Source of the DNA: Clostridia bacterium
Lineage (GTDB): Bacteria; Bacillota; Clostridia; Oscillospirales; CAG-272
Assembly: GCA_017465885.1 (NCBI GenBank)
Contig: JAFTVG010000011.1
Coordinates: 75,276-139,275 of the forward strand
Reading direction: 5' to 3'
DNA: 64,000 nt
The notes under the pieces are model-generated. The model had not been told where the DNA came from. It was given only the letters and a program-made list of their open reading frames with translations, and searched no databases. Below are positions 21,765 through 44,728 of this stretch, in pieces; position 1 is the stretch's first letter; each line of letters begins with the position of its first letter. The position numbers and the translations under genes were made by a program.

Positions 21765-22352
21765 ATGAGCATTCCCACTTTAAAAGAGCATATCAACGAC
21801 TATTTATCGGGCAGGATTTCAAGAGAGGAGCTGGATCAAAAGCTTGACACCCTGCATCATCAGGTGATCCTGCGTCTGAAGGACGATCTCTATTTTGAGG
21901 ATCTCTTTCTTTCCGCCCTGCTGCCCCATCTGACTGCCCTTCCCGAGCAGGCATATAGCGATGAAGAGCTGCGCCTTCTTTTAAAGGCACTTGAGGATGG
22001 ACAGCCCTTTTGCCTGCCCTGCTTCATCACCCTTTCGCCCCGTCACCTAAACGACCACGATCTGAATGTGCTTTGCCTTGGAGAAGATTACCTGAAAAAA
22101 GGAGAGCTGCACGAAAGCCCTCTTTTTGAAAACAAGCGCTATGAATTTGAGATCCCCAAAACGCTGCCCTCTCTGATGGCAAAGGATCTTTTGTACCTTT
22201 TATGGATGGCAAAAAAGCCCGAATGGGTGCTTTCTAAAACAGGTCTTGACCGCAGGGAGCTGAAAGAAAAGATCCAAAGCCTCGTTCTCCTGCTATCGGG
22301 AATGAGGACGGCATACCTGAGAGTGGGCGTAGACTGCGCCGCGGTGCTTTGA
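21765..22352 (+). CDS. Hypothetical cytoplasmic protein (195 aa)
   Basis: Clean ORF with its own promoter. No recognisable motif. Confidence 0.5.
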   Translation: MSIPTLKEHINDYLSGRISREELDQKLDTLHHQVILRLKDDLYFEDLFLSALLPHLTALPEQAYSDEELRLLLKALEDGQPFCLPCFITLSPRHLNDHDLNVLCLGEDYLKKGELHESPLFENKRYEFEIPKTLPSLMAKDLLYLLWMAKKPEWVLSKTGLDRRELKEKIQSLVLLLSGMRTAYLRVGVDCAAVL

Positions 22353-22532
22353 CTGCCGCGTTTCGCTCATTTTTTTAATACCCGGATAGACCGCATTCAG
22401 CGTGCTGTAACAGCAACCGAAGCGGTCTTTTGATTTATTGCAAAAAACAAAAAATTTTTGACATTCCTGCAACCGTTGTCAAAAAAAGTTGCTTGTATGG
22501 TTGAAGGCCTTTAAAGACAGAAAGGAGTGCGT

Positions 22533-23093
22533 ATGGATGACAGCATGATCGTGGACCAGTATTTGTCACGAAACGAAGAAGCCATTAAAAGCACTGCGGC
22601 TAAATATGGAAAAGCACTCAATACGCTGGCATTTTCTTTTTTGGAAGATCACGCCACGGCGGATGAATGTGAAAACGACACCTATTTTGCCGCTTGGAAT
22701 GCCATTCCGCCCCACGAACCAAGAAACTATCTCTTCCCCTTTTTACGCAAGATCACAAGACAGCTCTGCTTGAACCGCATCAAAGAAGGCAAGCGGCAAA
22801 AGCGCCGGGCGGAGATCGTTCAAATGAGCGAAGAGATGGCAAACTGTCTGCCCTCTGCTCAAAGCGTGGAAAGCGAGCTTGACGCGCAAGCGCTGGGCAA
22901 AGCCATCAGCAGTTTTTTAAAATCGATTTCGAAGGATCGCAGAGAGGTGTTCGTTCGCCGATACTGGTATCTTGAATCGATAAAAAGCATCGCCGATCAC
23001 TGCGGCATCAGCGAGAGCAACACCAAAAGCATTCTTTTCAGAACCAGAACCGAACTAAAACTTTATCTTGAAAAGGAGGGCTATACGATATGA
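22533..23093 (+). CDS. ECF-type RNA polymerase sigma factor
   Basis: About 186 aa. Has a region-2-like segment (DTYFAAWNAIP) and a region-4 HTH (SIKSIADHCGISESNTKSILFRTRTELKLYL). RBS aaaggag. Overlaps the next gene by 4 bp. Confidence 0.8.
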   Translation: MDDSMIVDQYLSRNEEAIKSTAAKYGKALNTLAFSFLEDHATADECENDTYFAAWNAIPPHEPRNYLFPFLRKITRQLCLNRIKEGKRQKRRAEIVQMSEEMANCLPSAQSVESELDAQALGKAISSFLKSISKDRREVFVRRYWYLESIKSIADHCGISESNTKSILFRTRTELKLYLEKEGYTI

Positions 23094-24229
23094 ATCAACG
23101 AGATCCATTAGAACTGATCGGGTATCTTGACGATTCGTTAATTGACGAAATCACCCCCTGCCCTACCCCCCAAAAACGCCCTTTGCGCTTTCGCTATCTT
23201 GCCGTTGCCGCGCTGATTGCCGCGTTGCTCACTGCCCTGACCGCCTTCGTATTCGCGTTCATCAAGCATCCCCCCACGGCGACAGACCCTTTGCCACCCT
23301 CGGAAAGCTTGATTTTACCCGAGGACGATCTGCTTTACGTCACGATAGACATCAACCCCTCGGTGGAGTTTACCGTAAAAGGACAGACAGTCATTGCCTT
23401 TAAGGCGTACAATGATGACGGCGCCGCGATCCTGAAGGACGAGGAATACTGCGGCAAGCATCTTTCCTCGGTGATTCCTGCCTTTATGGAAAAGCTGATG
23501 GAGGAGGGGTATTTAAAGCCCGGAGATGATCTGTCCGTCCTGCTGATCTCTGCAAGAGGAAGCACCGACTCGGCAATCGAAGCCTTGCTTGATACCGTAG
23601 TGGACATTGCGGAAAAAACGCTTTCGGAAGAGCAAATTCAAGCCTGCCTATTGGCAGAACCCATTTTAGATGCGCAAAAGGCAGAGGAAATGGCTGACCT
23701 TTACGGCGTTTCTCCCGGAAAGATCCAGTATTTGATGAATATTTTCGAGTACGACATGGATCTGGTCCCCGCGGATGCCGCCGAATTCACCCTTGTGGAG
23801 CTGTTCCGCATTGATATGAAGCGCCGTCTTTACCCGCCCAAATATCAAGTAGGTGAATATGACGAGTACGGTGAGTTGGTGCTGTACGTATCCATCTACG
23901 AGGAACCAAATCACCAATACGTCCCCTTTGAGGCACTGTCCAAGGAAGAGCAGGCAGAGCTGAAGAGAAATTATTCTCAAGAAGACCTTGACATTATGTT
24001 TGCCCCCCGCGTCTGGACGACGATGCCAAACGTGGTGGGACTTCCCAAAGAAGAGGCAGTTGATCTGTTGCACAGCCGCAACATTGCGGTGCGTATCACC
24101 TACGTTCACAGCCTCGATCATCTGGTAAGCGGCGACGATTTTAAACGGGGCGACTGCGTCAAACAGGAATTCAAGCCGGGACGACGGCACAATTCCGATG
24201 CCATCGTCACCATCTGGGTCTATCAATAG
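23090..24229 (+). CDS. Putative single-pass anti-sigma factor with a C-terminal extracytoplasmic PASTA-like domain
   Basis: Translationally coupled to the ECF sigma gene. Short cytoplasmic N-terminus, one TM (YLAVAALIAALLTALTAFVFAFI), and a last ~70 aa (MPNVVGLPKEEAVDLLHSRNIAVRITYVHS...GDCVKQEFKPGRRHNSDAIVTIWV) that follows the PASTA pattern. Confidence 0.6.
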   Translation: MNQRDPLELIGYLDDSLIDEITPCPTPQKRPLRFRYLAVAALIAALLTALTAFVFAFIKHPPTATDPLPPSESLILPEDDLLYVTIDINPSVEFTVKGQTVIAFKAYNDDGAAILKDEEYCGKHLSSVIPAFMEKLMEEGYLKPGDDLSVLLISARGSTDSAIEALLDTVVDIAEKTLSEEQIQACLLAEPILDAQKAEEMADLYGVSPGKIQYLMNIFEYDMDLVPADAAEFTLVELFRIDMKRRLYPPKYQVGEYDEYGELVLYVSIYEEPNHQYVPFEALSKEEQAELKRNYSQEDLDIMFAPRVWTTMPNVVGLPKEEAVDLLHSRNIAVRITYVHSLDHLVSGDDFKRGDCVKQEFKPGRRHNSDAIVTIWVYQ

Positions 24230-24258
24230 TACCCAACACAAAGAAAGGAACGTCATTT

Positions 24259-25560
24259 ATGAAACGAACGATAAAATTACTGTCTATGTTGCTTTTCGTT
24301 GCAATAGTGCTTTGCACTCTTGGCGGATGCACGGACGATTCCCTGCCAAGTACCGGGGAAAGCTCCCCCACGCTTCCCTCCTCCAAGGAGCCCCCGGCCA
24401 CCAAGCCCGCAGAGCAGCCCTCTGCCGATCCTTCCTCAACGCTTCCCGTTGATCCCCCCTTTTTGAAGGAGTTCGTTACCGAGGACGACCTGATCGGAGC
24501 AGTTTACTGCCAGACTTTCGGCGATTTGAAAGAGCATTTTAAAATGGAAGGTCAAAAGGGAAAAGAGGATATGACCTACGAATGGAAGCACGAAAGCGGC
24601 GGCACGCTTGTAGTGACCCTTGATTTTCCCATGTCCTTTCACATCACCCTCAGCGACTACGTCATCAAATCTATGAAGCTCCTGCCCAATGACTCTATTT
24701 CGTCCGTAAAGATCGGCGTTAAGATCCGTCCCGGTGCACATGCAGAAGAGGTTGCAACCGACATTATAAACGGGCTCTCCGTTTCGGGAGATCTGGTCAA
24801 GGACGTGATGTACAACTACGATTTCTCTCAAATGGGCTATTGGTTTTATTCGCTGATCCCCGAAAGCGATGAGGGTCTTCCCGAATTCTCGGGATGCGGT
24901 CTTGAAGGCTATCTTCCCTGCGGATGGTATTTCGTCAATGAATTCGACACCGAAAGCGAAGAAGCCTCAAGGGCTGCCATAGCAGAGCTTCTCTGCGCTC
25001 AGCTTTCCCGCTTTAACGAAACGGTTTTGGAAAGCACGTTAAAAGAGCATCAGGACTATATGGCAAAGCATTACCCCGGCGTCCCCTGTGCAAAGACCTT
25101 TACCCAGCTGTTGACCATGGCGTCGCTCATTCAGGCAGACGGTATCGGTCGCCCTGAATTTTACCCCACCATTGCCGCAACCTACTTTAACCGCTTGGGC
25201 GCTGACTCCTATGAAAACATCCAGGGCAGGCTTTGCAGTCCCGCTTCGCTTTATTTTGAGGTTTACAAAATTACGGGGCTTCACGGCAGAGTGGAAGGGC
25301 TGAACATTGGCGAATACGATCATTATGATTTTGACTTCAACACCTTCAAGCAGGCGGGCATCCCCTCTTCCCCCGTATGCTCTCCCTCGCCCGAGGCACT
25401 TGCCGCGGCAGTAACACCCAAAAAGGATTGTGCGTATTATTACTATGCGCCCGTTTCCCGGGATCAAAGCACCACACCCATGGCGTTGTATTTTGCGCAA
25501 ACGGCTGAAGAATTCATTGCCGATTGCAAAAAAACGGGATGGCGCGTCCTGCCCGATTAA
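24259..25560 (+). CDS. Lipoprotein with a C-terminal YceG/MltG-like domain (catalytic motif altered)
   Basis: Lipobox TLGGC. The C-terminal half aligns by eye to MltG: MASLIQADGIGRPE..YFNRL / FNTFKQAGIPSSPVCSPSPEALAAAVTP / YYYY. The E. coli EKE motif corresponds to QAD here (25132-25140). Confidence 0.55.
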   Translation: MKRTIKLLSMLLFVAIVLCTLGGCTDDSLPSTGESSPTLPSSKEPPATKPAEQPSADPSSTLPVDPPFLKEFVTEDDLIGAVYCQTFGDLKEHFKMEGQKGKEDMTYEWKHESGGTLVVTLDFPMSFHITLSDYVIKSMKLLPNDSISSVKIGVKIRPGAHAEEVATDIINGLSVSGDLVKDVMYNYDFSQMGYWFYSLIPESDEGLPEFSGCGLEGYLPCGWYFVNEFDTESEEASRAAIAELLCAQLSRFNETVLESTLKEHQDYMAKHYPGVPCAKTFTQLLTMASLIQADGIGRPEFYPTIAATYFNRLGADSYENIQGRLCSPASLYFEVYKITGLHGRVEGLNIGEYDHYDFDFNTFKQAGIPSSPVCSPSPEALAAAVTPKKDCAYYYYAPVSRDQSTTPMALYFAQTAEEFIADCKKTGWRVLPD

Positions 25561-25599
25561 AAAAGATCTTAAACCACCGTAAAAGAAAGGAAATCGAAA

Positions 25600-25800
25600 G
25601 TGAATAGCTTTGGAAAAAATCTGAAAGACTGCCGAGAGCAGTCGGGATACACCCAAAAAAGACTGGGGAATGCCCTGGCGCTCACTCCGCAGGCTATTTC
25701 CAAATGGGAAACGGGCGTTTCCCTCCCCGATTTGATCACTCTTGCAAAGATTTCTCACATTCTGAACGTCAGCGCAGATGCGTTGCTGAATGGCTGCTGA
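25600..25800 (+). CDS. Small XRE-family HTH protein (66 aa)
   Basis: GTG start with RBS aaaggaaa. HTH_3 pattern GYTQKRLGNALALTPQAISKWETG. Confidence 0.7.
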   Translation: MNSFGKNLKDCREQSGYTQKRLGNALALTPQAISKWETGVSLPDLITLAKISHILNVSADALLNGC

Positions 25801-25890
25801 CACGGATGATCACAAAGAGGTGCTTCCCGCAGGTGCGGCGGAAAGCACCTCTTTTTTGTTTTTTTAACATATTTCTTTTTTGAAATGTTC

Positions 25891-28787: not shown

Positions 28788-29423
28788 TTATTGCGTAACT
28801 GAATTTTGGGGTGTCTGCTGCTCTAACACCCGATCATAAAGAGCATAGGCGTTTCTGATCCGCTCAAGATAGATCCGACTGCTCTCTTTAGGCACGTTTT
28901 CAACCGTTATTCCGTCCACCGAGCAGGCAGGATCCTTTAACCACTGCCGCACCTTGCCGATGCCTGCGTGATAGGCAAGGTGGGCGGTGTCCCAGCTACC
29001 CGTCAGATCGTAAAGCTCTCTTAAATACTCTGTGCAAAAATCAATGTTCACCCCGGGGTCCTTCAGATCCTCGGGATCGTAAGGCACGCCCCGCTTGGCG
29101 CATTGCTCCTTGTAGGTGGAGGGAAGCATCTGCATCAATCCAACCGCCCCCGCCTCTGAGATCACGGCAGGCCGAAAGCTGCTCTCGGTTAAGATCACCG
29201 CGTAAATACGCGCCGCAGACACGCCGTGCTTTTGGCTTGCTGCCAACACCTCTTCCTCGTAAGCCAGAGTGACCTGCGATCCCTGCTCCTCGGTCCTCAG
29301 CCCCTCCATCCGATCCACAGCCAGATATCCAAGTGCGCCCAGCGCCGCAAGCAACGCCACGCAAAGGATCAGCGCCGTCAGATAAAGGGGGGCTTCCCCT
29401 CTTTTTTGCCGCTTCATCAGCAC
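28788..29423 (-). CDS. Lytic transglycosylase (SLT domain), membrane-anchored
   Basis: N-terminal TM anchor, catalytic Glu context ILTESSFRP, and AVGLMQMLPSTY. Confidence 0.8.
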   Translation of the reverse strand: MLMKRQKRGEAPLYLTALILCVALLAALGALGYLAVDRMEGLRTEEQGSQVTLAYEEEVLAASQKHGVSAARIYAVILTESSFRPAVISEAGAVGLMQMLPSTYKEQCAKRGVPYDPEDLKDPGVNIDFCTEYLRELYDLTGSWDTAHLAYHAGIGKVRQWLKDPACSVDGITVENVPKESSRIYLERIRNAYALYDRVLEQQTPQNSVTQ

Positions 29424-32989: not shown

Positions 32990-33083
32990 TTTGCTATTTG
33001 TTTACATATAGTATTTGACAAGCCCACCGACTTTGTGGTATACTTATACCATAAATTCGATATGCGATCACGGAGAGACCGTT

Positions 33084-34754
33084 ATGCTTTTAAAAAAGAC
33101 CCTTTGCATTCTTCTCTGCCTGCTGACGGCGGCAGGCATTCTTGCGTCCTGCTCCAAGGGCCAAACCACCATCCCCGCCCTGCCATCCGCCCCCTCGGGT
33201 GAAACGGGCGAGAGCGGAAGCACCGATCTGCCCCCCGCAGGATGTCTTCACACCAATACCAAAAGGATCGCCGACAAGGATGCCACCTGCACGGCGGACG
33301 GCTACGAGGACAAGCTGAAATGCAAGGACTGCGGCGAGGTGCTGGACGCCAGCGGAACCGTCCTTTACGCCAAGGGACATCAATACAAAAACCGCTCCTG
33401 CGTCTACTGCGATAAGCCCGAGCCCGACGTTGCCACCGAGGGTGTTTTCCCGGGTACGAGTACCTATTGGAAGCTTTATACCGACGGTGAACTGGAGATC
33501 GGCGGCGAGGGAGCCACCCCCGATTTTGACGAAGCAGACGACAGTTATTTTTATAAATACAACAAAGCAGTCACCTCCATCGTGGTATCACGGGGGGTAA
33601 CGCGCATCGGTGACAACCTTTGCAGAGTGCTCAAGGAGGCGGAGAGCATCAGCATCTCCTCCACCGTCACCGAGATCGGCGACCACGCCTTTGACGGATG
33701 GGAGCTGGAGGAGCTGAACCTGCCCCTCCGACTGGAAAAGCTGGGCGACGAAAATTTCACCTCCAACAAGCTCTTTTTCTTGGAGCTGCCCAATACCCTG
33801 ACGTACGTGGGCGCAGGATGCTTTGAATCTACACAGCTCATTACCCTGAGAGTGCCCTCCTCGGTGACCACCTTTAAAACGGTGAAGGGACAGTTCTCCA
33901 ATCTGGAAAACCTCGCCTTTACGGGAAGCATGGAGCAGCTTATGCATCTGGATCTGGGCAGACACCTGAAGGTAGACGGAAAATGCGCGCTGGTAAACGT
34001 GCTTTGCAACTTTACGGATGCGGCAAACAGTCTGCCCTACTGCACCAAACGAGGACAAAAGGAGGGGGATTTCACCTATATCGTCTATACCGACAAAACG
34101 GCTCGGATCTCCAAATACAGCGGTACGGCAGAGGATTTGGTCATCCCCGAAAAGATCGGCGGATATACCGTAACCGGCATACACAACACCTGCTTTGAGG
34201 AAAGCGGGGCGCTGGTGAAAGTGACCCTGCCAAAGACACTGAAGACCATCGGCAGAGAGGCCTTCGTTGACAGCTCCATTTCCGAGCTGGTCATCCTCTC
34301 CCCCGAGGTGCGGGTAGCAGACTTTGCCTTTAAGGGCTGTGCTTCGCTGAGCAAGTTGACCTTTGAGGGCGTCTTTACCGACATAGGACACGGCGCGTTC
34401 TCGGCAACGCATATTTCAAACATCAACCTCTCTCCCAAAATGGACGCTCTGCGCGAGTCGGCGTTGGCTCAGACAGAGGTCAAGATCCGAGATTTTACGC
34501 AATTTGACTATATCGGCGACAGCGCACTTGCATACACCTCCCTTGGAAGTGACATCGACCTGACGGGCGTCAAGGAGATCGGCTTCGGTGCCTTTTACCG
34601 CGCGGGAGTGTTGGGCGCAAACGTGACCAACGTGGGCAAGATCGGGGCATATGCCTTCCACCTCAACGGAAACCTGGATAATGACAACGTGATCGGTATT
34701 GCAACCGTTAAAAGCATCGATCCTGCAGCATTCGAATTCAAAACAGCCCCATAA
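33084..34754 (+). CDS. Lipoprotein with BspA-type leucine-rich repeats
   Basis: RBS ggagag plus ATG at 33084. Lipobox ILASC. Repeated units of about 23 aa of the form ...I..I.D.AF..C..L..I.LP. Confidence 0.75.
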   Translation: MLLKKTLCILLCLLTAAGILASCSKGQTTIPALPSAPSGETGESGSTDLPPAGCLHTNTKRIADKDATCTADGYEDKLKCKDCGEVLDASGTVLYAKGHQYKNRSCVYCDKPEPDVATEGVFPGTSTYWKLYTDGELEIGGEGATPDFDEADDSYFYKYNKAVTSIVVSRGVTRIGDNLCRVLKEAESISISSTVTEIGDHAFDGWELEELNLPLRLEKLGDENFTSNKLFFLELPNTLTYVGAGCFESTQLITLRVPSSVTTFKTVKGQFSNLENLAFTGSMEQLMHLDLGRHLKVDGKCALVNVLCNFTDAANSLPYCTKRGQKEGDFTYIVYTDKTARISKYSGTAEDLVIPEKIGGYTVTGIHNTCFEESGALVKVTLPKTLKTIGREAFVDSSISELVILSPEVRVADFAFKGCASLSKLTFEGVFTDIGHGAFSATHISNINLSPKMDALRESALAQTEVKIRDFTQFDYIGDSALAYTSLGSDIDLTGVKEIGFGAFYRAGVLGANVTNVGKIGAYAFHLNGNLDNDNVIGIATVKSIDPAAFEFKTAP

Positions 34755-35935: not shown

Positions 35936-36005
35936 ATTTTTCACTCTTGAATAAACATCATCGGAGGTGCTAAGTTGAATCAATAACAACTAATCCGTTT
36001 CGGTA

Positions 36006-36017
36006 TTATTCCCATTC
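36006..36017. repeat. Degenerate att-core copy (TTATTCCCATTC)
   Basis: 11 of 12 nt identical to the guaA stop-region repeat. It lies exactly 113 bp from the first arm-type heptamer, the same spacing as in the intact element. Confidence 0.55.
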
Positions 36018-36118
36018 TTTTTTGGAAATCTTCTTTGGCTTACTTATATCCTAAATAATATCCCAACCGGCGGTTTTGAGCCCGTTTTTCCACTCATTAT
36101 TTTATTTTTCAAAATTTT

Positions 36119-36137
36119 TGTTGCAGAAAATGTTGCA
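36119..36137. promoter_or_regulatory. Paired arm-type repeats of element A, left end (TGTTGCA x2)
   Basis: TGTTGCAgaaaaTGTTGCA. Confidence 0.45.
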
Positions 36138-36173
36138 AAATCGCTTGTGGGATAGTGCCGAGTGGCTTAAGAG

Positions 36174-37475
36174 TTACGGCCTCACCATTCGAACCGTGTG
36201 CTCTGTTTGTTTTGTTTTTACCAACCCAAGTTTATCGCAAATATGAAGTAGTTCCTTGTTTAATACAGGAACATCAATATAAGTTTGTTTTCCGGCTATT
36301 GATAGCACGTACTCAAGAAGACGAGTACCAAATCCATTACGCTGATACTTCCCCTCAATGTATAGATTATCTATATGTCCGTTATGTACCGTAACGATTC
36401 CGATTTCTCTTCCAAAAGATATGCTATACAGTTTTCCACCGCTTGAAATGACTTTGTTGATTTTTTCTGCAATGATTTTTTCTTCCGTGATGTATCTTGC
36501 CTCGTTTTCTTCTCTGGACAAACTGTAATCAAACCTTCCGTATCGATTTACATATCGGCAGATATGCTCAACTTGTTCAGTAGTGCCCGAAAACTCTCCA
36601 ATTATAATTTGGGTTCCCATAGCAGCCACAATCTGCGAGTCGGGATTTGACCATGGTTTGTTGATTCCCCAAAAGATTGAATTATTGGAGTTCGTATCCA
36701 AACCTGAGAGCAGGTCTTTGCGATTACATATTACTTTATAATTTCTACGCTTGAAATAAAACATATTGCTCTCACAAGTAAAGATAGAACTTATCCTTTG
36801 TCCTTGATGTATCAATGCGTCTTTCAACGACAGCAAATCTACATCATTCGGAACGGTGTCATAAATACCGTCAAATAAACGGAAACAAGCCCAATAATCC
36901 TTAACTTCCGGTACTATGCTTGATGTCCAACTTGCATAACAATTCACCAATTGCATCAACACATATTTTCCGTCAAAATTATGAAAATCTTCTTCAGAAA
37001 TCGGTTTTGATTTTTGTTCTGTATATGGTTTTCCTACTGTCTGCAACTGAACAGCAATGATATCTCCGTCATCAAAAATTCGTTCTGTGTGCACATTCGG
37101 CTTAATTTTCTTCTTTGGTAGTTGCGGTGATAGTAGTTTTTCTTTGAACTCGGCAAGTTTCTTTTTTCTGGAATCCAAAGTCTTTTGACCGGCTTCTTGC
37201 CACAACGCCAAACCAAAACCGCTATCAATCATTTCAAGTGCTTTGTTCCTTACAGAATCAGTTAAAATCCCTTTCTTCCACATAAAATCAGCGAGCGAAT
37301 AAATATAGTTGCACCATTCTTCTTCGTCTGATTCATCAAACATTTCTGACCTGATATAGTTATCAATCCGTTGCAACGCTTCTTCTACATCAAACTTATA
37401 GAAGGCGGCGGTATATTCAATATATAAATCTTTTGCAGTATCATTTCCTGTGATACTGGTATTCCAAGTTCCCAT
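36174..37475 (-). CDS. Fusion protein: DUF4259-like N-terminus plus an unknown middle region plus a C-terminal GNAT acetyltransferase fold
   Basis: Strong RBS aggaggt. The N-terminus MGTWNTSITGNDTAKD resembles the DUF4259 start (MGTWGxGxFDNDxAxD). The C-terminus IDNLYIEGKYQRNGFGTRLLEYV matches the GNAT motif A (Q/RxxGxG). Confidence 0.55.
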   Translation of the reverse strand: MGTWNTSITGNDTAKDLYIEYTAAFYKFDVEEALQRIDNYIRSEMFDESDEEEWCNYIYSLADFMWKKGILTDSVRNKALEMIDSGFGLALWQEAGQKTLDSRKKKLAEFKEKLLSPQLPKKKIKPNVHTERIFDDGDIIAVQLQTVGKPYTEQKSKPISEEDFHNFDGKYVLMQLVNCYASWTSSIVPEVKDYWACFRLFDGIYDTVPNDVDLLSLKDALIHQGQRISSIFTCESNMFYFKRRNYKVICNRKDLLSGLDTNSNNSIFWGINKPWSNPDSQIVAAMGTQIIIGEFSGTTEQVEHICRYVNRYGRFDYSLSREENEARYITEEKIIAEKINKVISSGGKLYSISFGREIGIVTVHNGHIDNLYIEGKYQRNGFGTRLLEYVLSIAGKQTYIDVPVLNKELLHICDKLGLVKTKQTEHTVRMVRP

Positions 37476-37539
37476 ACGTTACCTCCTATTTACTTAAAAG
37501 CCACTTGCAACCATTCCTCTTCACGCTTTTTATATTGAG

Positions 37540-37557
37540 TGTTGCAAAAGTGTTGCA
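37540..37557. promoter_or_regulatory. Paired arm-type repeats of element A, right end (TGTTGCA x2, 11-bp spacing)
   Basis: TGTTGCAaaagTGTTGCA. Confidence 0.45.
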
Positions 37558-37569
37558 GCGCGTTTTTCG

Positions 37570-37986
37570 TCAATTGCAGAAATGCCCGAAAGCCCTTTGT
37601 TTCCAAGGGTTTTCGGGCACTTGTACGCCGGTTAATTGTTTTGATTTTATAGTTGTAACAGTCGAAACTAACATTCTGCGAAGCTCAATACACGCACTTT
37701 GCATTTTATTAAACTCATTTTCACTAATCGAATTAGTTTCATAAAGAAGCTCAAGCCAGTATTCGCTCTCGTTACATTCTTTTAGTGCTATCTCAAACTT
37801 TGAAATAAAATCCTTTGTACCTTGCGCGTACTGCGCCTCGTGGACGTTTGCGCCAACCGACGTGCCACTTTTAAGCAACTAATTGATTAAAACGCCTTCT
37901 ATTCTGCTTTCTCTTAACCGTCTGCAAAGAAAAACTATTTCTTTGGCAAATGCTTTTGATTTATCTCTCAAGATACTGTCTGCCAT
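37570..37986 (-). pseudogene. Four-helix-bundle protein gene interrupted by an in-frame TAG and extended at its 3' end into the element-A terminus
   Basis: ATG at 37986 with RBS aaaggagaaa. It reads MADSILRDKSKAFAKEIVFLCRRLRESRIEGVLIN-TAG(37881-37879)-LLKSGTSVGANVHEAQ..., where family members usually have Gln. The C-terminus runs about 20 aa past the family end, through the 37584-37618 hairpin. Confidence 0.65.
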
Positions 37987-38002
37987 AGTTTTTCTCCTTT
38001 TT

Positions 38003-38156
38003 AGTTATGAGTTTAAAGTTATGAGAGTGCTTCGCACTCGTTATGATATGATTGCCTCGTTCTTTCAACTGCACCGAAGGTGCATCATAACTTGACGAAG
38101 CCAACCATAACTCATAACTTGCCCAAAGGGCAATCATAGTTCATTTTGCTTCGCAA
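38003..38156 (-). other. Array 2 of mini-hairpins interleaved with inverted words, immediately 5' of the second four-helix-bundle gene
   Basis: Hairpins lie at 38026-38, 38071-83, 38120-32 and 38146-56. The words AGTTATGAG (38003, 38017) and CGTTATGAT (38039) are mirrored by ATCATAACT (38084) and CTCATAACT (38111). It shares CACCGAAGGTGCAT with array 1. Confidence 0.8.
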
Positions 38157-38158
38157 AA

Positions 38159-38170
38159 TTATTCCCACTC
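38159..38170. repeat. att core, distal copy (TTATTCCCACTC)
   Basis: Identical 12-mer to 47151-47162, which is the stop codon plus the last three codons of guaA. Confidence 0.7.
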
Positions 38171-38271
38171 AAGATTGATTATTTTATCAATGGTTTTTAT
38201 GGGGCTATTTAGTCTATTTATTCTCATTTTTTGCGCCTAAAATCTCACAAAAATTTGGCTCTCAAAAATAT

Positions 38272-38289
38272 TGGTACGATTTTGGTACG
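38272..38289. promoter_or_regulatory. Paired arm-type repeats of element B, left end (TGGTACG x2, 11-bp spacing)
   Basis: TGGTACGattttGGTACGc, 113 bp from the att core. Confidence 0.55.
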
Positions 38290-38435
38290 CCATAAAAAAG
38301 CTGTTTTTCGTGTGTTTCACGGGGTAGTTTATATTTTCAACCTGCTATCCGAACAACATCAAAAAACGGCGTTTTTTTGCCCTTTTTGAGAGGGATAATT
38401 GCGAGGTTTCCATACTCTGTCCGAGTAATCATTTT

Positions 38436-39353
38436 TTATTGCTCTAACAAGTATATTTTACCCTCTGCTCTTAAAACGGAAATATCATAATAACGATATA
38501 TCGCTTCGATCATTTCTCCGTCTTTCTCTGCTTCACCAATGCCGGAACTCCATACACGCAGAAAACTATATTCTTTTGTTTCGGAGTTATACTGACCTAA
38601 AAAATCATAGGTGGTAGTTTCCTTAACGCTTTCTTCACCGTCCGCATATATCAAATCCGTATAGGCATATTGCTTTTGGCTTGTATCAACTTGAATACCG
38701 TAATTGTTATACTTACCCGACAATTCAAAGGCAACGCTTTGCTCTTTTTCTATGTCAATGAGAGAATAGTATTCTTCTTTAAGAGAGATACCCCACCAAA
38801 CAGCAAGATCATCAATTTCCCCAAAGGCATTCTCTTTCCAATAGGGGTACTCTATCACATCAAAATAATCGTTCCAATTATCAAGCGTTATAGTAATTTC
38901 TTTGGAATTGGTATGTGTTGTCTGCGTATCGTCTGTGTTTACGCCGCCATTATCAACATATTCTTTGTCTTTGGCAACAAAATCAGCGGGTCTGTAGTAT
39001 ATCTCTGTATCATACTTTAAGACGGTCTTTCCGTTTTCGTCTGCAATTTCCAAAACACCGCTTACGCCGTTTTTATCAAGCGTAAAAATGAATTGATTTA
39101 GATCGGCAATATATTCCCATTTTGCGCTTTCACCCTTATAGATACAAGTGCCGTCCTCTTGCAAAGTGATTGTTGCAACTTGATATGTTATCTCATTATC
39201 AAAACGAGATTTAAGGGAGTTTGCTTTCCATTCTCCCATATAATCCGAAATAGATTGTTTATCGTTGTTATTCTCTTTTTGATTATCATTATTACAAGCG
39301 GAAAATGAAAACAACATTACAACCGCTAATAACAGTACAAATAATTTTTTCAT
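38436..39353 (-). CDS. Lipoprotein of unknown function (305 aa), element cargo
   Basis: Lipobox FSFSAC and RBS aggagc. Confidence 0.6.
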   Translation of the reverse strand: MKKLFVLLLAVVMLFSFSACNNDNQKENNNDKQSISDYMGEWKANSLKSRFDNEITYQVATITLQEDGTCIYKGESAKWEYIADLNQFIFTLDKNGVSGVLEIADENGKTVLKYDTEIYYRPADFVAKDKEYVDNGGVNTDDTQTTHTNSKEITITLDNWNDYFDVIEYPYWKENAFGEIDDLAVWWGISLKEEYYSLIDIEKEQSVAFELSGKYNNYGIQVDTSQKQYAYTDLIYADGEESVKETTTYDFLGQYNSETKEYSFLRVWSSGIGEAEKDGEMIEAIYRYYDISVLRAEGKIYLLEQ

Positions 39354-39538
39354 TTGTGCCGCTCCTACTGACGATTTATTTTAAGTAATTATAACATAAA
39401 ATTGTGAATAAAGCAACTGACAGAAACAATTATACCTACAATCAGCAACTTTTTTCGTTTTTTCACGAAAAGCAACGAAATAAATCACCAATGTTTCTAT
39501 GGGAAACATCACTCTTGGTAAAATTATATAAAGAGGTG

Positions 39539-39841
39539 ATGTTTATGATTGTATGCTTGTCTGTGCGCTTGAAAGAATTGCGCATAAATAAAAATCTAAC
39601 ACAAGCGCAAGTTGCTCAATATGTGGGTGTTACCCGTGCCGTTATAAGTGCATACGAAACGGATATACGGCAACCGTCTTATGATATACTGATACGCCTT
39701 GCGCTGTTATACGGCGTTACAACCGACTATCTATTATGTATTGATAGTAAACGGTATTTGGATATATCGGGTCTATCGGAGCGGGAAGCCGCCGCAGTAT
39801 GCGAAATGGTTAATGTATTTATGGAAAACAAAAAGAAATGA
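39539..39841 (+). CDS. XRE-family HTH transcriptional regulator
   Basis: RBS aaagaggtg. HTH_3 pattern LTQAQVAQYVGVTRAVISAYETD. The palindrome ATGTTTC-tatgg-GAAACAT lies upstream (39490-39508). Confidence 0.7.
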   Translation: MFMIVCLSVRLKELRINKNLTQAQVAQYVGVTRAVISAYETDIRQPSYDILIRLALLYGVTTDYLLCIDSKRYLDISGLSEREAAAVCEMVNVFMENKKK

Positions 39842-39852
39842 GGTACATATCT

Positions 39853-40542
39853 ATGAAAAAAAGAATATTATCACTCTTAATGGCTGTATGCCTTATGACA
39901 ACGCTTGTCAGCGTTTGCTCCGTGTCCGCTTCTGCTGCGGAAGGTGATGTTTATGTTTATGCCTACAACGCAAGAGCAAAAGCCGGAGAAACGGTTGAAA
40001 TCCCCTTTTATATCAATTCTGAGGAAGAATTTGCTTGCTTGACCTTTACTCCCGATTTTGATTTTACCGCTTTAGAGTTGGTTAATGTTGAGTGTGGCAT
40101 ACCGGGCGGTAGCTTTATATACAACGAAAATCCCACCAACCCTAAATTTATTTGGTATCACCCTCAAAATATGGCTGTCGGACAAGAACCCGTTTTCACT
40201 TTAACCTTTGTTGTTAAAGAGGGAGCAAGAGAGGGCAAATATCCCGTTACGCTCCTTTTTAACGAAAACGATATTTGCGATGAAAACGGCTCCCGTATTC
40301 CCCTGCAAGTGGAGGCGGGGGAAATCACAATATTTCGCTATCTTCTCGCCGATGTCAATAACGATCTTTCTGTTGATAGTGCTGATGTTGTTAAGCTTGC
40401 TCGTTATTTGGTTTATTTGGAAACGGAGATCAACACATACGGAGCAGATGTAAACAAGGATAGCAATGTTGATGGCAGGGACTTAATCAAACTTGCACGC
40501 CATATGGCAGGGGCAGAAATGATCGAGGGCGCAGGATATTAA
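39853..40542 (+). CDS. Secreted cohesin-dockerin protein (small adaptor scaffoldin-like)
   Basis: Signal peptide. A cohesin-like beta-sandwich pattern (AKAGETVEIPFYINS...FTLTFVVKEGAREGKYPVTLLF...GEITI) is followed by two dockerin Ca-binding repeats (DVNNDLSVDSADVVKLARYL / DVNKDSNVDGRDLIKLARHM). Confidence 0.7.
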   Translation: MKKRILSLLMAVCLMTTLVSVCSVSASAAEGDVYVYAYNARAKAGETVEIPFYINSEEEFACLTFTPDFDFTALELVNVECGIPGGSFIYNENPTNPKFIWYHPQNMAVGQEPVFTLTFVVKEGAREGKYPVTLLFNENDICDENGSRIPLQVEAGEITIFRYLLADVNNDLSVDSADVVKLARYLVYLETEINTYGADVNKDSNVDGRDLIKLARHMAGAEMIEGAGY

Positions 40543-40627
40543 CCGACTTTTCAAGCATACAATCAAATACATAATAGCAATAGACCGTCAGCAATGGCGG
40601 TCTATTTGCTTTGTTGAATAATAATAT

Positions 40628-41317
40628 TCAAAACTGCCCTTGCTCCAAAACAAGCTCTTGCTTGTACTTATAAAAACTGTTTCGGGATATTCCGGCAAGG
40701 CGTTGACATTCGGCGTTGTTTAGAGATCCGCCAAAATCAATTAAATGTATGCGGATAATCTCTTTTGCCGCTATGCTCTTTTTGGTGGTGAGCTTTGCGC
40801 CCTTTTGTTGTCCTATCTGCTTTCCGTTCAGCCGAGCGGTTATAATGCCCTCTTTGGTGCGTTGGTGTAGGTCTGTTACCTCTTTTTCCGCTTGCTCAAA
40901 TGCTATCCTTATTTGCTCTTTGGCTAATTCCATTAGATATTTATTGATACCCTCTAAAATATAATCCACAGCCGTCCCCGTGAGCTTTACAGAGCTTGCT
41001 ACCGCCTTTTTATAGGTCTGTGTATTGATTTGCGGCTCTTTAAGGAAAACAAGCTCTACGCCCCTATTGTAAAGCTCTTGATATACCGCAAAGCCGTCAG
41101 CGGCGTTACGGGACATTCTTGACACAGAGTCAAAAACTATCATATCCCCCTCAACTACGATTTTTAGCAATTTATCAAAATTAGGGCGGGATAGTTTCGT
41201 ACCCGTAAACTCGTCTTGTAAAATGATCGCTTTAGGGTACGCCGTTTTTATATTTCGTATCTGTCTGTCAATGCTTTGTTTAGGCGTGGAAATTCGTGCA
41301 TATCCGTATATTGTCAT
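40628..41317 (-). CDS. Small serine recombinase (resolvase/invertase family)
   Basis: MTIYGYARISTPKQSIDRQ contains the catalytic Ser motif, and there is a C-terminal HTH. 229 aa. Confidence 0.85.
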   Translation of the reverse strand: MTIYGYARISTPKQSIDRQIRNIKTAYPKAIILQDEFTGTKLSRPNFDKLLKIVVEGDMIVFDSVSRMSRNAADGFAVYQELYNRGVELVFLKEPQINTQTYKKAVASSVKLTGTAVDYILEGINKYLMELAKEQIRIAFEQAEKEVTDLHQRTKEGIITARLNGKQIGQQKGAKLTTKKSIAAKEIIRIHLIDFGGSLNNAECQRLAGISRNSFYKYKQELVLEQGQF

Positions 41318-41361
41318 TGGTTATATTCCTTTCTGTGTTCAAATTTAACGACCGTCTGATT

Positions 41362-41441
41362 TGGTACGCTGTGATAAGGCAAAAACGCCTTGCGCCGTCT
41401 GCGCTTTTGGTACAATCGTGAAATAGGTCAGTTTTGGTACT
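41362..41441. promoter_or_regulatory. Three TTTGGTAC(G/A/T) repeats upstream of the serine recombinase gene (res-like or extra arm sites)
   Basis: TGGTACG at 41362, TGGTACA at 41408 and TGGTACT at 41435. This is the same heptamer family as at both element ends. Confidence 0.45.
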
Positions 41442-41485
41442 GTGTGAGAGGGGCAGGGACTAACCCTGCCGCCCCTCGTTGACTT

Positions 41486-41602
41486 TTATATAATCCGCTT
41501 GTATGCAAGAATAAAGAATATCACCCCTGCAACTATCGGCAAAACTGCGGACAATATCAAAAGTAAGAAAATCACAATGCAAGTTTCTGTATCGTTCAGC
41601 AT
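41486..41602 (-). CDS. 38-aa hydrophobic peptide, translationally coupled to the SprT-like gene (not in the ORF track)
   Basis: The ATG lies 6 nt after the SprT-like stop, and RBS agagggg lies inside the upstream gene's end. Sequence MLNDTETCIVIFLLLILSAVLPIVAGVIFFILAYKRII has one TM plus a basic tail. Confidence 0.4.
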   Translation of the reverse strand: MLNDTETCIVIFLLLILSAVLPIVAGVIFFILAYKRII

Positions 41603-41608
41603 TGCACA

Positions 41609-42259
41609 TCACCCCTCTATCATTTTCACGGCGCAATCACCGCATACAATGTTTACTGTGCGCGTTGCTCTAACTATCGTATGACAGCAAGGGCAGATAT
41701 AACGGCGGCTATTGCCTTTTGCGGTTGTGGTGATTTGAATACCACCGCTTGCGGAATGTGCGCCAACACCAACAGACATATATCCTATATCATTTCGGCA
41801 CATTTCTATTTCCCGTAGCTCGTTATGGTTTAACAGCCATTCAAGCAGGGTATCGTCCGGCTCTGTATGCGACCACCCGTATTTTTCTGTTTTGGTGCAT
41901 ATCAACCCGTGATCTCTACAAGCGGTTGCAAATGCTTTGTTGTGATATGTTCCGTTCCTTGATGTGTCTTGAATGTTCAGTATGGTATCATTGTACATAT
42001 GTACCATTTCGTGAAGCAATGAAGCGGTGATAGCTTCAAGCGGTCTGTTTAGTGTTCCGCTTGCTATATTGATTTCACGCTTTTGTGTATCTCCGGCACT
42101 CCAAGCATCCCACGGCGTATAGTGTGCGTATGATCGGCTTGACGGCGTTACAGTTATAACGGGCGTGTCAAGTGCATTGTTGAACATATCGGCGTTTAAT
42201 GCCCTAAACATTTTCTCTAATTGGTTGACAAGTCTTGACATATTGGTTACTTGTTTCAT
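41609..42259 (-). CDS. SprT-like zinc metalloprotease domain protein with a C-terminal zinc ribbon
   Basis: HEMVH (HExxH) in the context SLLHEMVHMYN. The C-terminus has CPCCH...CGDC. Confidence 0.7.
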   Translation of the reverse strand: MKQVTNMSRLVNQLEKMFRALNADMFNNALDTPVITVTPSSRSYAHYTPWDAWSAGDTQKREINIASGTLNRPLEAITASLLHEMVHMYNDTILNIQDTSRNGTYHNKAFATACRDHGLICTKTEKYGWSHTEPDDTLLEWLLNHNELREIEMCRNDIGYMSVGVGAHSASGGIQITTTAKGNSRRYICPCCHTIVRATRTVNIVCGDCAVKMIEG

Positions 42260-42401
42260 AGTTATTTACTCCCTTTCAATTATATTGATATTGATTTTAA
42301 GGGAGCGGGCGTGTATAATATTATTGTCCCGCTCCCCTGCGGTTGTGGGTCAAGTGTCTTGTATGATTGCTTTGGTCGGCGGTTTATACAAGGCACTTTC
42401 T

Positions 42402-42677
42402 TTATGCAATACTAAAGCGGCGGCTTGCCGTCTGTTTGGTGTACTGCTTGTACATATCGGCGTGTTCTTTCTTAAATGATGTAGTATCAAATCTGTTACT
42501 TAACACAGAAGTCCAACGGCAAATAAAACGCCCTGCTTCTAATTCTTCCGTGTCCCTTGCAAGCATTTCGGCTTTGATTTCGTCCCTTAATGCTTCGGCT
42601 TCTGCTCTGGCTTCTTCTGCAAGTGTTTCCCACTCTTGCAACTTTGCGATCTTGCTTTCCATTTCGTGTGTTGACAT
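42402..42677 (-). CDS. Small coiled-coil hypothetical protein (91 aa)
   Basis: RBS aagggga. Charged helical N-terminus. Function unknown. Confidence 0.5.
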   Translation of the reverse strand: MSTHEMESKIAKLQEWETLAEEARAEAEALRDEIKAEMLARDTEELEAGRFICRWTSVLSNRFDTTSFKKEHADMYKQYTKQTASRRFSIA

Positions 42678-42744
42678 TGTTATTGTCCCCTTTGTTAATA
42701 TATTCGGCGTGGGCGTTTGCCCTTGCCGTGATTATAGTATAGCA

Positions 42745-42822
42745 CATTGCGCAATGGTCGTCAATAGGCACATTGCACAATGTTCTTTTTGACGATTTGT
42801 TTATTTTGTACATTGCACAATG
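42745..42822. promoter_or_regulatory. Three CATTGCnCAATG operator palindromes overlapping divergent promoters
   Basis: CATTGCGCAATG at 42745, CATTGCACAATG at 42771 and at 42811. The plus promoter is TTGCAC (42813), 17-nt spacer, TGcTATAAT (42833-42841). The minus promoter is TTGACG, 17-nt spacer, TATACT, with operator 1 in its spacer. Confidence 0.6.
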
Positions 42823-42867
42823 TTCCAAAGTGTGCTATAATGATGTATATAATTAGGGGGTGCTATT

Positions 42868-43107
42868 ATGGCTTATAAAGACAGATCAACCGCAATCAAA
42901 TACAATAACGAATACAACAAGCAAGCGTATGACCGTATTAACTTGACCGTCCCCAAAGGAAAAAAGGAAAGCATACAGACGGCGGCGCAGGCGAACGGCG
43001 AAAGCGTGAACGCATTTATTAACAGATTGATTGATACCGAGCTTGAACGCATAGAGCAAGGCGAGGGTATTTCCCATATTTCACGCCGGACGGACGATAA
43101 AAAATAA
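42868..43107 (+). CDS. Ribbon-helix-helix (CopG/Arc-like) DNA-binding protein
   Basis: 79 aa. RINLTVPKGKKESIQTAAQANGESVNAFINRLI fits a beta-strand plus two helices RHH pattern. Candidate repressor for the adjacent operators. Confidence 0.55.
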   Translation: MAYKDRSTAIKYNNEYNKQAYDRINLTVPKGKKESIQTAAQANGESVNAFINRLIDTELERIEQGEGISHISRRTDDKK

Positions 43108-43255
43108 GCAAGTTGTTTGATCTTTCTCACACCGGCATTTTTGAAAATTAACATTCAAAACGAAACGGCATAAAAAAAGAGCGGCTTGCGCCGCTCCTAA
43201 AAACACATATCTATATAGCAAAACGGACGATTGATTTCGTCCGTTATTTTTTTGC

Positions 43256-43543
43256 TTATATTAGATATTCCTCTGTATCTGTACCAACCGTTTCAAGCAT
43301 AATCTTACCTCCGAGCCGAAAGGCGTGAGCAAATATTTCACACTCTATAACGCCGTTCATTTCATTTAGGCAATCCTCGTATTTTTCAAGTATTTCCTTT
43401 TGCTTGTCGGTCATTGTGGCGGTGAGTTCATCACGATTACGCCCCATAAGATCAAGCAAGTGTTTAATCCGCTTGTTGCCGTCCGTGCATTGTTCTTGTG
43501 GGTGTACATTGCCGTACCATAATTCTTCAAGTATTCCTCTCAT
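43256..43543 (-). CDS. Small conserved hypothetical protein (95 aa), of a kind common on clostridial mobile elements
   Basis: RBS aaaaggg. The start ILEELWYGNVHPQEQ recalls a recurrent MGE-borne family. Function unknown. Confidence 0.5.
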   Translation of the reverse strand: MRGILEELWYGNVHPQEQCTDGNKRIKHLLDLMGRNRDELTATMTDKQKEILEKYEDCLNEMNGVIECEIFAHAFRLGGKIMLETVGTDTEEYLI

Positions 43544-43585
43544 AATATGCGCCCTTTTCTGTTTTTCTTTACTCCATTATACCAC

Positions 43586-43763
43586 GCCGAAAATGCGTTG
43601 CACACTTCAATTTTTGATTTAGGCGCACTATGAAAATACGGAGATTGGCGTAATTTCAAGGGTGCTGTAAGCAACGCTTAATAGTGTATATAGAAAGTAC
43701 GCATTTTTCGGCACTTCGATTTAGACACATACCGAAAGGGCGTATTTTTCGCACTTTTATAGG
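43586..43763. repeat. Iteron-like direct and inverted repeats upstream of the putative replication/DNA-binding genes
   Basis: ACGCATTTTTCGGCACTTCGATTTAGACACA (43699-43729) has a partial direct copy GCGTATTTTTCGCACTT (43740-43756), an inverted partial copy GCCGAAAATGCGT (43586-43598), and the related CACTTCAATTTTTGATTTAGGCGCA (43603-43627). Confidence 0.4.
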
Positions 43764-43828
43764 GGTATGTCAATTTTTTCTTATGGTGTATAAGAAAACG
43801 CTATCACGAAAGAAAGGAGAACAAGAGT

Positions 43829-44023
43829 ATGGATTTACTTATGACCTACACAAACAGTATTCATATCACCGAAACGGACAAGGGCATTGAAATAGTGATT
43901 GACAAGCCGTCCGAGATTTACGATTGGCTACAAGAGATCAAAGCGTATTATGAAACCGATCTGTTTTCTGTTCTATATGACTTAATCAGAACGGAACGAG
44001 AGAACGAGCGGGACGAGCTTTGA
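43829..44023 (+). CDS. Small hypothetical protein (64 aa)
   Basis: RBS gaaaggaga. Acidic C-terminus. Confidence 0.45.
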   Translation: MDLLMTYTNSIHITETDKGIEIVIDKPSEIYDWLQEIKAYYETDLFSVLYDLIRTERENERDEL

Positions 44024-44131
44024 TTTATCCATTTATGAAAGGAGCGTGATAAACGCAAAAACGCCCATAACGGCAGGGACAAACGCCGTTGAATTAAAGG
44101 GAAACAATCAAATAGAAAAGGCAAATAAGCA

Positions 44132-44728
44132 ATGGGTAATATTTATATATACCACACATCACCAAACCAAAGAAGCGTTATAACGCATAAAACGCTGTCC
44201 GATAAAGAACACCCATACGGGATATGTAATATAGCGGCTACGCTAACCGCCGCAAAAGAGCTAACCGACAGAGCATATAAACTGTATATCCGAATGTCAT
44301 TACACCAAGACGGGCATACCTACGCTTTAAGTCCCGTTGAGATTAACAATAGTATTGGTATGACAGATAAGCGTTACAGAGAAGCGGTAAAAGAATTGAT
44401 TGATAAAGGTTATTTGGTGCAACACAAAGACCATAAAAGCGTGTATATCTTTTACGAAGCTCCGGCTATTGACAATGTTTCAGTATTGCCAAAAGAGATA
44501 GGCTATCTACCCCAAACGGAAAGTACAACCGTCCATAATGACTATATAGAACAGCCGATATGGGAAGTCAAACCGTCTGTTTCGGGGGGAGAAATAATAG
44601 ATAATATTACATCTCAAATACATAATAATACTGATACTACATTGCCGGATTTAAGTTTTATAACCAACAAAGGAAAAAGCAATAATGACTTGTTTCCAAG
44701 TCTGCAAAATGAAGATTTACCATTTTAA
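44132..44728 (+). CDS. Putative winged-helix DNA-binding / replication-initiator-like protein
   Basis: The segment SPVEINNSIGMTDKRYREAVKELIDKGYL looks like a wHTH. It lies downstream of the iteron-like repeats. The assignment is weak. Confidence 0.35.
   Translation: MGNIYIYHTSPNQRSVITHKTLSDKEHPYGICNIAATLTAAKELTDRAYKLYIRMSLHQDGHTYALSPVEINNSIGMTDKRYREAVKELIDKGYLVQHKDHKSVYIFYEAPAIDNVSVLPKEIGYLPQTESTTVHNDYIEQPIWEVKPSVSGGEIIDNITSQIHNNTDTTLPDLSFITNKGKSNNDLFPSLQNEDLPF

Follow-up and report, generated by a model that had tools for sequence, protein, structure and literature searches.

The 64,000-nucleotide stretch analyzed here (hereafter the window; positions 75,276 to 139,275 of contig JAFTVG010000011.1, assembly GCA_017465885.1 of a Clostridia bacterium) carries four same-strand genes at positions 22533–25800 (+), which encode a sigma factor of the extracytoplasmic function (ECF) type, a membrane protein that crosses the membrane once, a lipoprotein, and a small XRE-family protein. 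The first gene (22533–23093, +) encodes an ECF-type sigma-70 family sigma factor of 186 aa. A mechanically called GTG start of this open reading frame (ORF) at 22527 falls within the ribosome-binding site (RBS) GAAAGGAG, and the homologs begin with MDDS or MEDS. The second gene (23090–24229, +; 379 aa) overlaps the sigma stop codon by 4 bp (ATGA). Based on this overlap, its adjacency to the sigma gene, and a hydrophobic stretch at residues 36–58, its product is assigned as a single-pass anti-sigma factor. The lipoprotein gene (24259–25560, +; 433 aa), assigned by PF02618 and by Foldseek matches, lies 29 nt 3′ of the anti-sigma gene and has its own RBS. The XRE gene, which encodes a helix-turn-helix protein of 66 aa (25600–25800, +; HTH_3 at 4e-14), follows 39 nt downstream in the same orientation and is probably co-transcribed with the three genes upstream. 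A stem-loop followed by a T-run (25831–25860, +) resembles a terminator and likely marks the end of the operon. An earlier note on this DNA had given the same gene layout, and all of its coordinates were correct, including the 4-bp coupling and a QAD motif at 25132–25140 in the lipoprotein gene. All of the parts found at this locus, namely an ECF sigma factor, a SEAL domain, a PASTA domain, and a YceG domain, are known individually; their combination is rare and, within the literature searched, new.

The anti-sigma factor consists of an N-terminal segment (residues 1–35), a transmembrane stretch (36–58), a SEAL domain, a conserved middle segment, and a PASTA domain, in this order. Residues 36–58 form its single hydrophobic stretch and have lysine and arginine residues on their N-terminal side, so the C-terminal part is predicted to be outside the cell. 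This agrees with the single-pass topology that had been proposed. A feature absent from the earlier note is a juxtamembrane RsgI-type SEAL/periplasmic domain (RsgI_M; residues 83–213, 23336–23728, +), which matches PF23750 at 71.4 bits. An AlphaFold2 (AF2) model of the ectodomain (residues 76–379; mean predicted local distance difference test score, pLDDT, of 76) was compared with solved folds by Foldseek. The SEAL part of this model matches Bacillus subtilis RsgI (8t9n; E 4.5e-8, TM score 0.75) as well as RsgI1, RsgI2, RsgI6, and RsgI9 of Clostridium thermocellum (8t9n and 8hdj span E 4.5e-8 to 1e-6). The N-terminal RsgI domain (RsgI_N, PF12791), through which RsgI proteins bind SigI, has no match at E ≤ 1 in the Pfam search of the anti-sigma factor, and more distant SEAL proteins found by a family-profile search do carry it. 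At the opposite end of the protein, a single PASTA domain (residues 311–378, 24020–24223, +) scores 28.8 bits against PF03793, for which the gathering score is 23.2 (E 1.2e-6, profile positions 2–63 of 64). The corresponding part of the AF2 model has a pLDDT of 70–92 and matches the third PASTA domain of PknB (3ouv; TM score 0.82, root-mean-square deviation 1.7 Å, 73 columns). Further fold matches, all with a probability of about 1.0, include 5e10, 7o61, 2z2l, further PASTA domains of PknB, and those of Staphylococcus aureus penicillin-binding protein (PBP) 1 and PBP2x. The profile score and the PknB match both support the C-terminal PASTA domain that the earlier note had placed at about 24015–24226.

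Relatives of the anti-sigma factor were collected by word-indexed searches of 5.8 billion clusters with the single sequence and with a family profile. Only nine of these clusters (P0001–P0009) combine SEAL and PASTA domains. A scan of GTDB with one genome per species yielded three loci, which belong to a Faecousia sp., a Lachnospiraceae bacterium, and a Clostridia bacterium from the rectum of a water deer. A scan of JGI metagenomes with the anti-sigma factor yielded two further loci, and the same scan with the lipoprotein yielded no match. All members come from assemblies of Clostridia from gut and rumen that have not been cultured. This is a tiny family, and the finding rests on a handful of metagenomic sequences. 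By sequence identity, the members fall into three clades: clade A is the group of the window, clade B includes P0006–P0009 and the loci L004, L005, and L014, and clade C includes L006, L007, and L008. At the place homologous to the PASTA domain, the relatives have sub-threshold PASTA matches of 13–23 bits.

Work published in 2023 demonstrated that the SEAL domain cleaves its own chain at a conserved Asn-Pro bond (PMC10328401; PMC10556640). The fragments remain associated until the ectodomain is pulled off, and only then does the site-2 protease act (PMC10328401; PMC10556640). In the window protein, the corresponding motif is D87-I-N89-P90-S91 (DINPS), and Asn89-Pro90 (23354–23359, +) is the predicted autoproteolytic scissile bond, based on the alignment to cleaved RsgI chains. 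In the Protein Data Bank chains of cleaved RsgI9 and RsgI1 (8u9o_B and 8hep_B), the first residue is the one that aligns with P90. Five positions (D87, N89, P90, S91, and N108) are invariant across clades A and B, with D110 nearly so, and this set corresponds to the residues named for RsgI2 autoproteolysis (PMC10328401). Self-cleavage of the SEAL domain at Asn89-Pro90 is predicted on the basis of these sequence features. The presence of this domain shifts the interpretation of the anti-sigma factor from one gated by a ligand to one that acts like RsgI, by self-cleavage and ectodomain release.

Clades A and B share a dense set of invariant residues in the PASTA part, and this speaks for a ligand that is specific and conserved. 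Peptidoglycan binding is known for the PASTA domains of kinases and of S. aureus PBP1, and all PASTA domains studied experimentally sit on proteins of cell-wall synthesis or wall sensing. In light of these precedents, the ligand in the window protein would most likely be peptidoglycan material, whether the wall as such, nascent strands that are not cross-linked, or lipid II. Alternatively, the PASTA domain may be a structural or protein-binding cap rather than a peptidoglycan sensor. The signal would then be of another kind, for example a polymer from the host or the diet, a surface protein, or unfolding stress, perceived through the middle segment or, in some relatives, through extra C-terminal domains. 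Some PASTA domains bind no muropeptide and reliable sequence signatures for binding are lacking, and two clade B proteins carry further sequence at the C-terminus, as polysaccharide-sensing RsgI proteins do. We consider this alternative unlikely, given that the experimentally studied PASTA domains are all on wall-related proteins and that the neighboring gene with a YceG fold also points to peptidoglycan. The two additions are a Big_14 immunoglobulin-like domain after the PASTA domain in L005 (6001–7557) and an extension of approximately 190 residues after the PASTA domain in P0008.

Between the SEAL and PASTA domains lies a segment that begins with RLYPPKYQVGEYDEYGELVLYV, includes YQVGEYDEYGE, and ends with YVPFEALSK (residues 246–285, 23825–23944, +). 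It was recognized by conservation: a dense run of its residues is invariant across clades A and B, which places it among the best-conserved parts of the ectodomain. The segment has no Pfam match. It is also the sole low-confidence part of the AF2 ectodomain model (pLDDT 30–35), and it may serve to bind a partner or to bear force.

The sigma factor belongs to the group 4 type, with regions 2 and 4 only and with a gene for a membrane regulator as its partner. It matches Sigma70_r2 and Sigma70_r4_2 in Pfam and TIGR02937 at 6.5e-17, and its best family matches are ECF models (Sigma70_ECF). Its closest solved relatives are CnrH (E 8e-5) and SigL, with no SigI among them; together with the ECF family matches, this rules out a sigma factor of the SigI type. 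The sigma gene lies directly 5′ of the anti-sigma homolog in all loci with enough flanking sequence (L002–L006, L009–L010, and L014). This conserved adjacency, the Pfam matches, and TIGR02937 support the assignment as a pair of an ECF sigma factor and an anti-sigma partner in the membrane. Upstream of the sigma gene, a promoter-like element (22468–22506, +) consists of TGCAACC, a 15-nt spacer, and TGCTTGTATGGTTGAAG. Each of four sigma genes, that of the window and those of L004, L005, and L006, has the pattern TGyAACC-N15/16-yGCTwTATAnGGTGAAG upstream. In the operons that share this motif, the sigma proteins are 47–52% identical and the anti-sigma proteins 24–38% identical. The element is likely an autoregulatory ECF promoter, as judged from its conservation and position. 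The search for an ECF-specific promoter suggested in the earlier note led to this one candidate; no further copies that would mark additional regulon sites were found within the 64-kb window or the fetched loci.

The lipoprotein begins with a signal peptide and an LGGC lipobox (Cys24), followed by a Pro/Ser-rich linker, an N-terminal domain (approximately residues 66–150), and a YceG/MltG domain (residues 151–423). The lipobox cysteine is kept in all homologs. The YceG domain scores 70.7 bits against PF02618 (cut-off 32.4), and most of this part of the AF2 model has a pLDDT above 90. The model matches only MltG/YceG structures (4iiw, 8yq7, 2r1f, and 8yoa; E 1e-9 to 3e-7, about 265–295 columns in Foldseek), consistent with the MltG-like C-terminal half described previously. 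The N-terminal domain has no family match and is modeled with low confidence; its counterpart in the clade C homolog has only a faint BamE-like match. A LysM-like beta-alpha-alpha unit, of the kind that follows the transmembrane anchor in MltG proteins, may be retained, with the Pfam match starting from profile position 70 and with model elements at residues 86–91 (strand), 97–108 (helix), and 112–121 (helix). A full HMMER search of 1.84 billion representative proteins returned 288 matches at E ≤ 1e-3 and six at 1e-10, and such low numbers indicate a very divergent YceG protein.

The active site of this domain is altered at two positions. The catalytic residue is E218 in E. coli MltG and E242 in B. 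subtilis. When the window protein is aligned by HMMER with Lmo1499 and with E. coli MltG, its LIQAD stands opposite IIEKE. E218 must be the second glutamate of IIEKE because D245 then falls in QTDPT, in agreement with Taguchi et al.; D294 of the window protein therefore aligns with E218. Motif counts were made on the 149 of the best 150 matches that align here. Position 292 is Glu in 82 and Gln in 66, and position 293 is variable. The motif QAE is seen 20 times, and QAE, QKE, and QRE are common in ordinary relatives. The claim that the motif opposite EKE reads QAD (Q292-A293-D294, 25132–25140, +) is therefore to be narrowed: Q292 and A293 are ordinary variants, whereas Asp at position 294 is unusual (Glu in 144, Asp in four, and Ser in one). 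The only sequences with Asp there are three close orthologs and P0015, a 386-aa lipoprotein that is 31% identical to the window protein and shares its N-terminal domain. The idea of a shifted catalytic glutamate was rejected: TMAS(L/I)I sets the helix register, and E300 aligns with a second, non-catalytic conserved glutamate (E224 in E. coli), so no shifted Glu makes up for the altered catalytic position.

The second active-site carboxylate is lost as well. The D245 position is Asp in 95% of YceG proteins and Asn in muramidase-type MpgA (Taguchi et al.). In the window protein, C326-S327-P328-A329-S330 (25234–25248, +) replaces the aligned (Q/E)-(S/T)-D-(P/A)-T that contains this residue, and it includes neither Asp nor Asn. 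P0015 has CSPSA at this place, and every member of the Asp-variant clade, P0015 among them, has LCSP. The YNTY motif reads FNTF in the window clade, and the P0015/clade C copy lacks the last 45 or so residues of the YceG domain. Both the D294-for-Glu replacement and the loss of D245 recur in a lineage that is only 31–36% identical, where the gene again lies directly after a gene for a PASTA anti-sigma factor. Because the catalytic Glu is replaced by Asp and the second Asp is missing, the lipoprotein would most likely bind glycan strands with little or no cleavage.

A different view is that the signaling module is the same and the lipoprotein is an active glycan-cleaving enzyme, which uses Asp294 as the acid and is the main effector of the regulon. 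With its variant site, such an enzyme may have an altered product or substrate specificity, and it would serve in wall remodeling or strand release. The conservation pattern fits this view: D294 is invariant over 31% identity along with G295, G297, N361-T362, and G-x-P-x-x-P, whereas a dead site would be expected to drift. Moreover, the D245N variant of E. coli MltG yields muramidase products, such that the outcome is altered instead of abolished, and the nearest canonical relatives (P0016 and P0019) have Asn at the D245 position. However, in lysozyme-type enzymes, replacing Glu by Asp at the acid catalyst usually costs most of the activity. In the window clade, both carboxylates have changed together, to Asp and Pro, and FNTF stands in place of YNTY. 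Strands at the C-terminal end of the fold are missing from the clade C protein, and the domain as a whole is extremely divergent, as the HMMER counts above illustrate. On balance, we regard an active enzyme as possible and less probable than a glycan-binding protein, although it is the strongest of the alternatives. No second, canonical YceG gene is present in the 64-kb window. An SLT-domain protein of 211 aa (family 1 lytic transglycosylase; 28788–29423, −) is encoded 3 kb downstream, beside coaE, and no ECF-type promoter motif was seen near its gene.

The gene for the Asp-variant lipoprotein lies directly after the anti-sigma gene in clade A (L001 and L009–L012) and in clade C (L006–L008). 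In clade B, no such gene follows, and the SEAL domain, the middle segment, and the PASTA domain are almost unchanged. Because this adjacency is found in two of the three clades, the lipoprotein is unlikely to be an obligatory co-sensor. An obligatory co-receptor would capture glycan strands and dock on the PASTA domain or on residues 246–285, thereby releasing or retaining the ectodomain. This arrangement would resemble the activation of sigma-V that is triggered when lysozyme binds RsiV. The tight adjacency of the two genes, conserved over deep divergence, is in line with such a role, as are the tethering of both proteins to the outer face of one membrane and the apparently compromised catalytic site of the lipoprotein. 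Nevertheless, the clade B anti-sigma factors retain all three ectodomain parts without the adjacent gene, and we consider an obligatory co-receptor improbable. In two clade B loci (L003 1882–2364 and L014 1982–3085), the gene after the anti-sigma gene encodes a small Cys-rich membrane protein with a CxxC...CxxC pattern. In L014, this gene is followed by a 205-aa ORF with a CxxxCxxC motif, which, judging from that motif, might be a candidate radical-SAM activase. The Cys-rich protein and the 205-aa ORF may be alternative regulon members. The XRE gene is limited to the window lineage (L009 and L010); in L001 and L007, it does not follow the lipoprotein gene. The XRE protein named as part of the cluster is indeed present and co-oriented, but it is not among the conserved members of the module.

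Taken together, we propose that the four-gene, probably autoregulated operon is an envelope signaling pathway that mixes parts of two known systems, and that it probably ties cell-wall status to transcription. We give this proposal about an even chance of being correct. In the proposed pathway, the short cytoplasmic N-terminus of the anti-sigma factor would hold the ECF sigma factor at the membrane. The SEAL domain would self-cleave at the Asn89-Pro90 bond, with both resulting pieces held together by a shared beta-sheet; the motif and the fold are seen here, and the chemistry is that of the homologs. The PASTA domain, which takes the place of the disordered region or carbohydrate-binding module (CBM) of RsgI, would hold peptidoglycan material. 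A change in this contact, caused by wall damage, altered synthesis, or an altered distance between wall and membrane, would pull on or release the ectodomain. The exposed membrane stub would then be cut by a site-2 protease of the RasP/RseP type, which would free the sigma factor to transcribe its own operon from the TGyAACC-N15/16-yGCT motif, the presumed promoter. The co-transcribed lipoprotein, as a membrane-tethered YceG/MltG paralog, would be an induced accessory or feedback factor at the interface of membrane and wall. Under this proposal, it would not be an obligatory co-receptor, and the XRE gene would be a lineage-specific passenger.

Several observations weigh against this proposal. 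Residues 1–35 of the anti-sigma factor matched no anti-sigma domain model, either of the zinc-binding class I or of the non-zinc-binding type. The rule proposed for PASTA ligand binding, which is based on Arg and Glu residues, failed for S. aureus PBP1; a sequence rule for recognizing peptidoglycan-binding PASTA domains is thus unreliable and was set aside. The conserved segment at residues 246–285 could be the real sensor. The conserved Asp at the catalytic position of the lipoprotein may mark a working variant enzyme instead of a binder. Finally, the clade C anti-sigma factor (L006 1410–2597) keeps the PASTA domain and the middle segment, but it no longer matches RsgI_M; the Asn-Pro is lost (LNVEKNVELEV) together with the flanking Asp, Ser, Asn, and Asp. 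The lack of the motif in this clade implies that autocleavage is not universal in the family, and the clade C protein may be one of the SEAL relatives without autocleavage that Brogan et al. postulated.

A more far-reaching version of the proposal is that the products of the three conserved genes together sense peptidoglycan assembly directly, by mechanical means. The disabled, membrane-tethered MltG paralog and the PASTA domain would both grip nascent glycan strands. As these strands are drawn into the wall, or are not, force would pass to the pre-cleaved SEAL domain, tear off the ectodomain, and release the sigma factor. We consider this the least probable of the explanations. If true, it would be a version of B. 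subtilis RsgI wall sensing with a defined ligand, and it would be a case of a pseudo-lytic-transglycosylase recruited as a signaling co-receptor.

Other features of the window surround the operon. Directly upstream of the sigma promoter, an ORF of 195 aa (21765–22352, +) has no family match; it is kept at the equivalent place in L009 and L010, and not in clades B or C. Positions 36000–47051 have a low G+C content (0.37–0.43, compared with about 0.52 elsewhere) and are probably an integrated mobile element. This block ends with a tyrosine integrase gene (45966–47051, +) with Phage_integrase, SAM-like, and Arm-binding domains, and it includes two ORFs (36174–37475, −, and 38436–39353, −) that have no Pfam match. 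Three large BspA-type surface proteins with leucine-rich repeats (LRR_5) are encoded at 33015–34754, 49349–52426, and 58672–62187. One of the three has a galactose-binding-like domain, and proteins of the BspA type are typical of host-associated Clostridia.

Among the searched articles that name RsgI, no co-mention of a PASTA domain was found. Among publications that include the terms PASTA, anti-sigma, and ECF, no such fusion is evident from the titles and abstracts; in one that mentions all three, PASTA is the name of an aggregation-prediction server. Brogan et al. reported seven domain types appended to SEAL anti-sigma factors, and PASTA may be one of them.

Among bacteria, signaling by self-cleavage and mechanical release is best exemplified by anti-sigma factors of the RsgI type. 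The sensor of B. subtilis RsgI is a disordered region, which has kept its way of reading wall defects obscure. A natural variant that joins SEAL and PASTA offers a cleaner system for asking whether SEAL mechanotransduction reads peptidoglycan directly, as the links of PASTA domains to peptidoglycan are well studied. The locus also indicates that SEAL domains are not restricted to SigI partners; the one in this operon would act on an ordinary ECF sigma factor through a different and very short cytoplasmic segment. Likewise, PASTA domains are not confined to kinases and PBPs. The co-inherited YceG paralog, in which both active-site carboxylates are missing, may be a pseudoenzyme or a variant enzyme; its family is now central to models of glycan-strand termination.

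Compared with known systems, the window operon is related to the SigI/RsgI pairs (B. subtilis RsgI and C. thermocellum RsgI1–9) through its single-pass anti-sigma factor with a juxtamembrane SEAL domain, the Asn-Pro bond with flanking Asp, Ser, Asn, and Asp residues, a C-terminal sensory module outside the cell, and the site-2 proteolysis that is expected to follow. It differs in having a 186-aa ECF sigma factor, a cytoplasmic part of only about 35 residues without RsgI_N, and no long disordered region, and in having a PASTA domain where RsgI proteins have a CBM, a PA14 domain, or a glycoside-hydrolase-like module. B. subtilis RsgI reports on cell-wall defects. Among ECF pairs with class II short anti-sigma domains, the CnrH/CnrY type offers a lead only, in that CnrH is the closest solved sigma factor with weak similarity; CnrY, the partner of CnrH, likewise uses a very short cytoplasmic segment, whereas the N-terminus of the window anti-sigma factor has no sequence match to any model. 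The PASTA kinases (PknB, PrkC, and StkP) and class B PBPs (PBP2x and S. aureus PBP1) have in common with the window protein an extracellular PASTA module on a single-pass protein and a presumed link to peptidoglycan or its precursors. However, they carry two to four PASTA domains instead of one, and their output is phosphorylation or transpeptidation, whereas the proposed output here is the release of a sigma factor by proteolysis. Lastly, the lipoprotein shares with MltG/YceG proteins (E. coli MltG, B. subtilis MltG, and Streptococcus pneumoniae MpgA) the YceG fold, the TMASLI helix, and the NRL, NT(Y/F), and G-(L/I)-P-x-x-P motifs. Those proteins are anchored by an N-terminal transmembrane helix, whereas the window protein has a predicted lipid-modified Cys anchor (LGGC) and an extra N-terminal domain. 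It further differs from them in having Asp in place of the catalytic Glu, Pro or Ser at the equivalent of Asp245, FNTF in place of YNTY, and a gene located within a sigma/anti-sigma operon.

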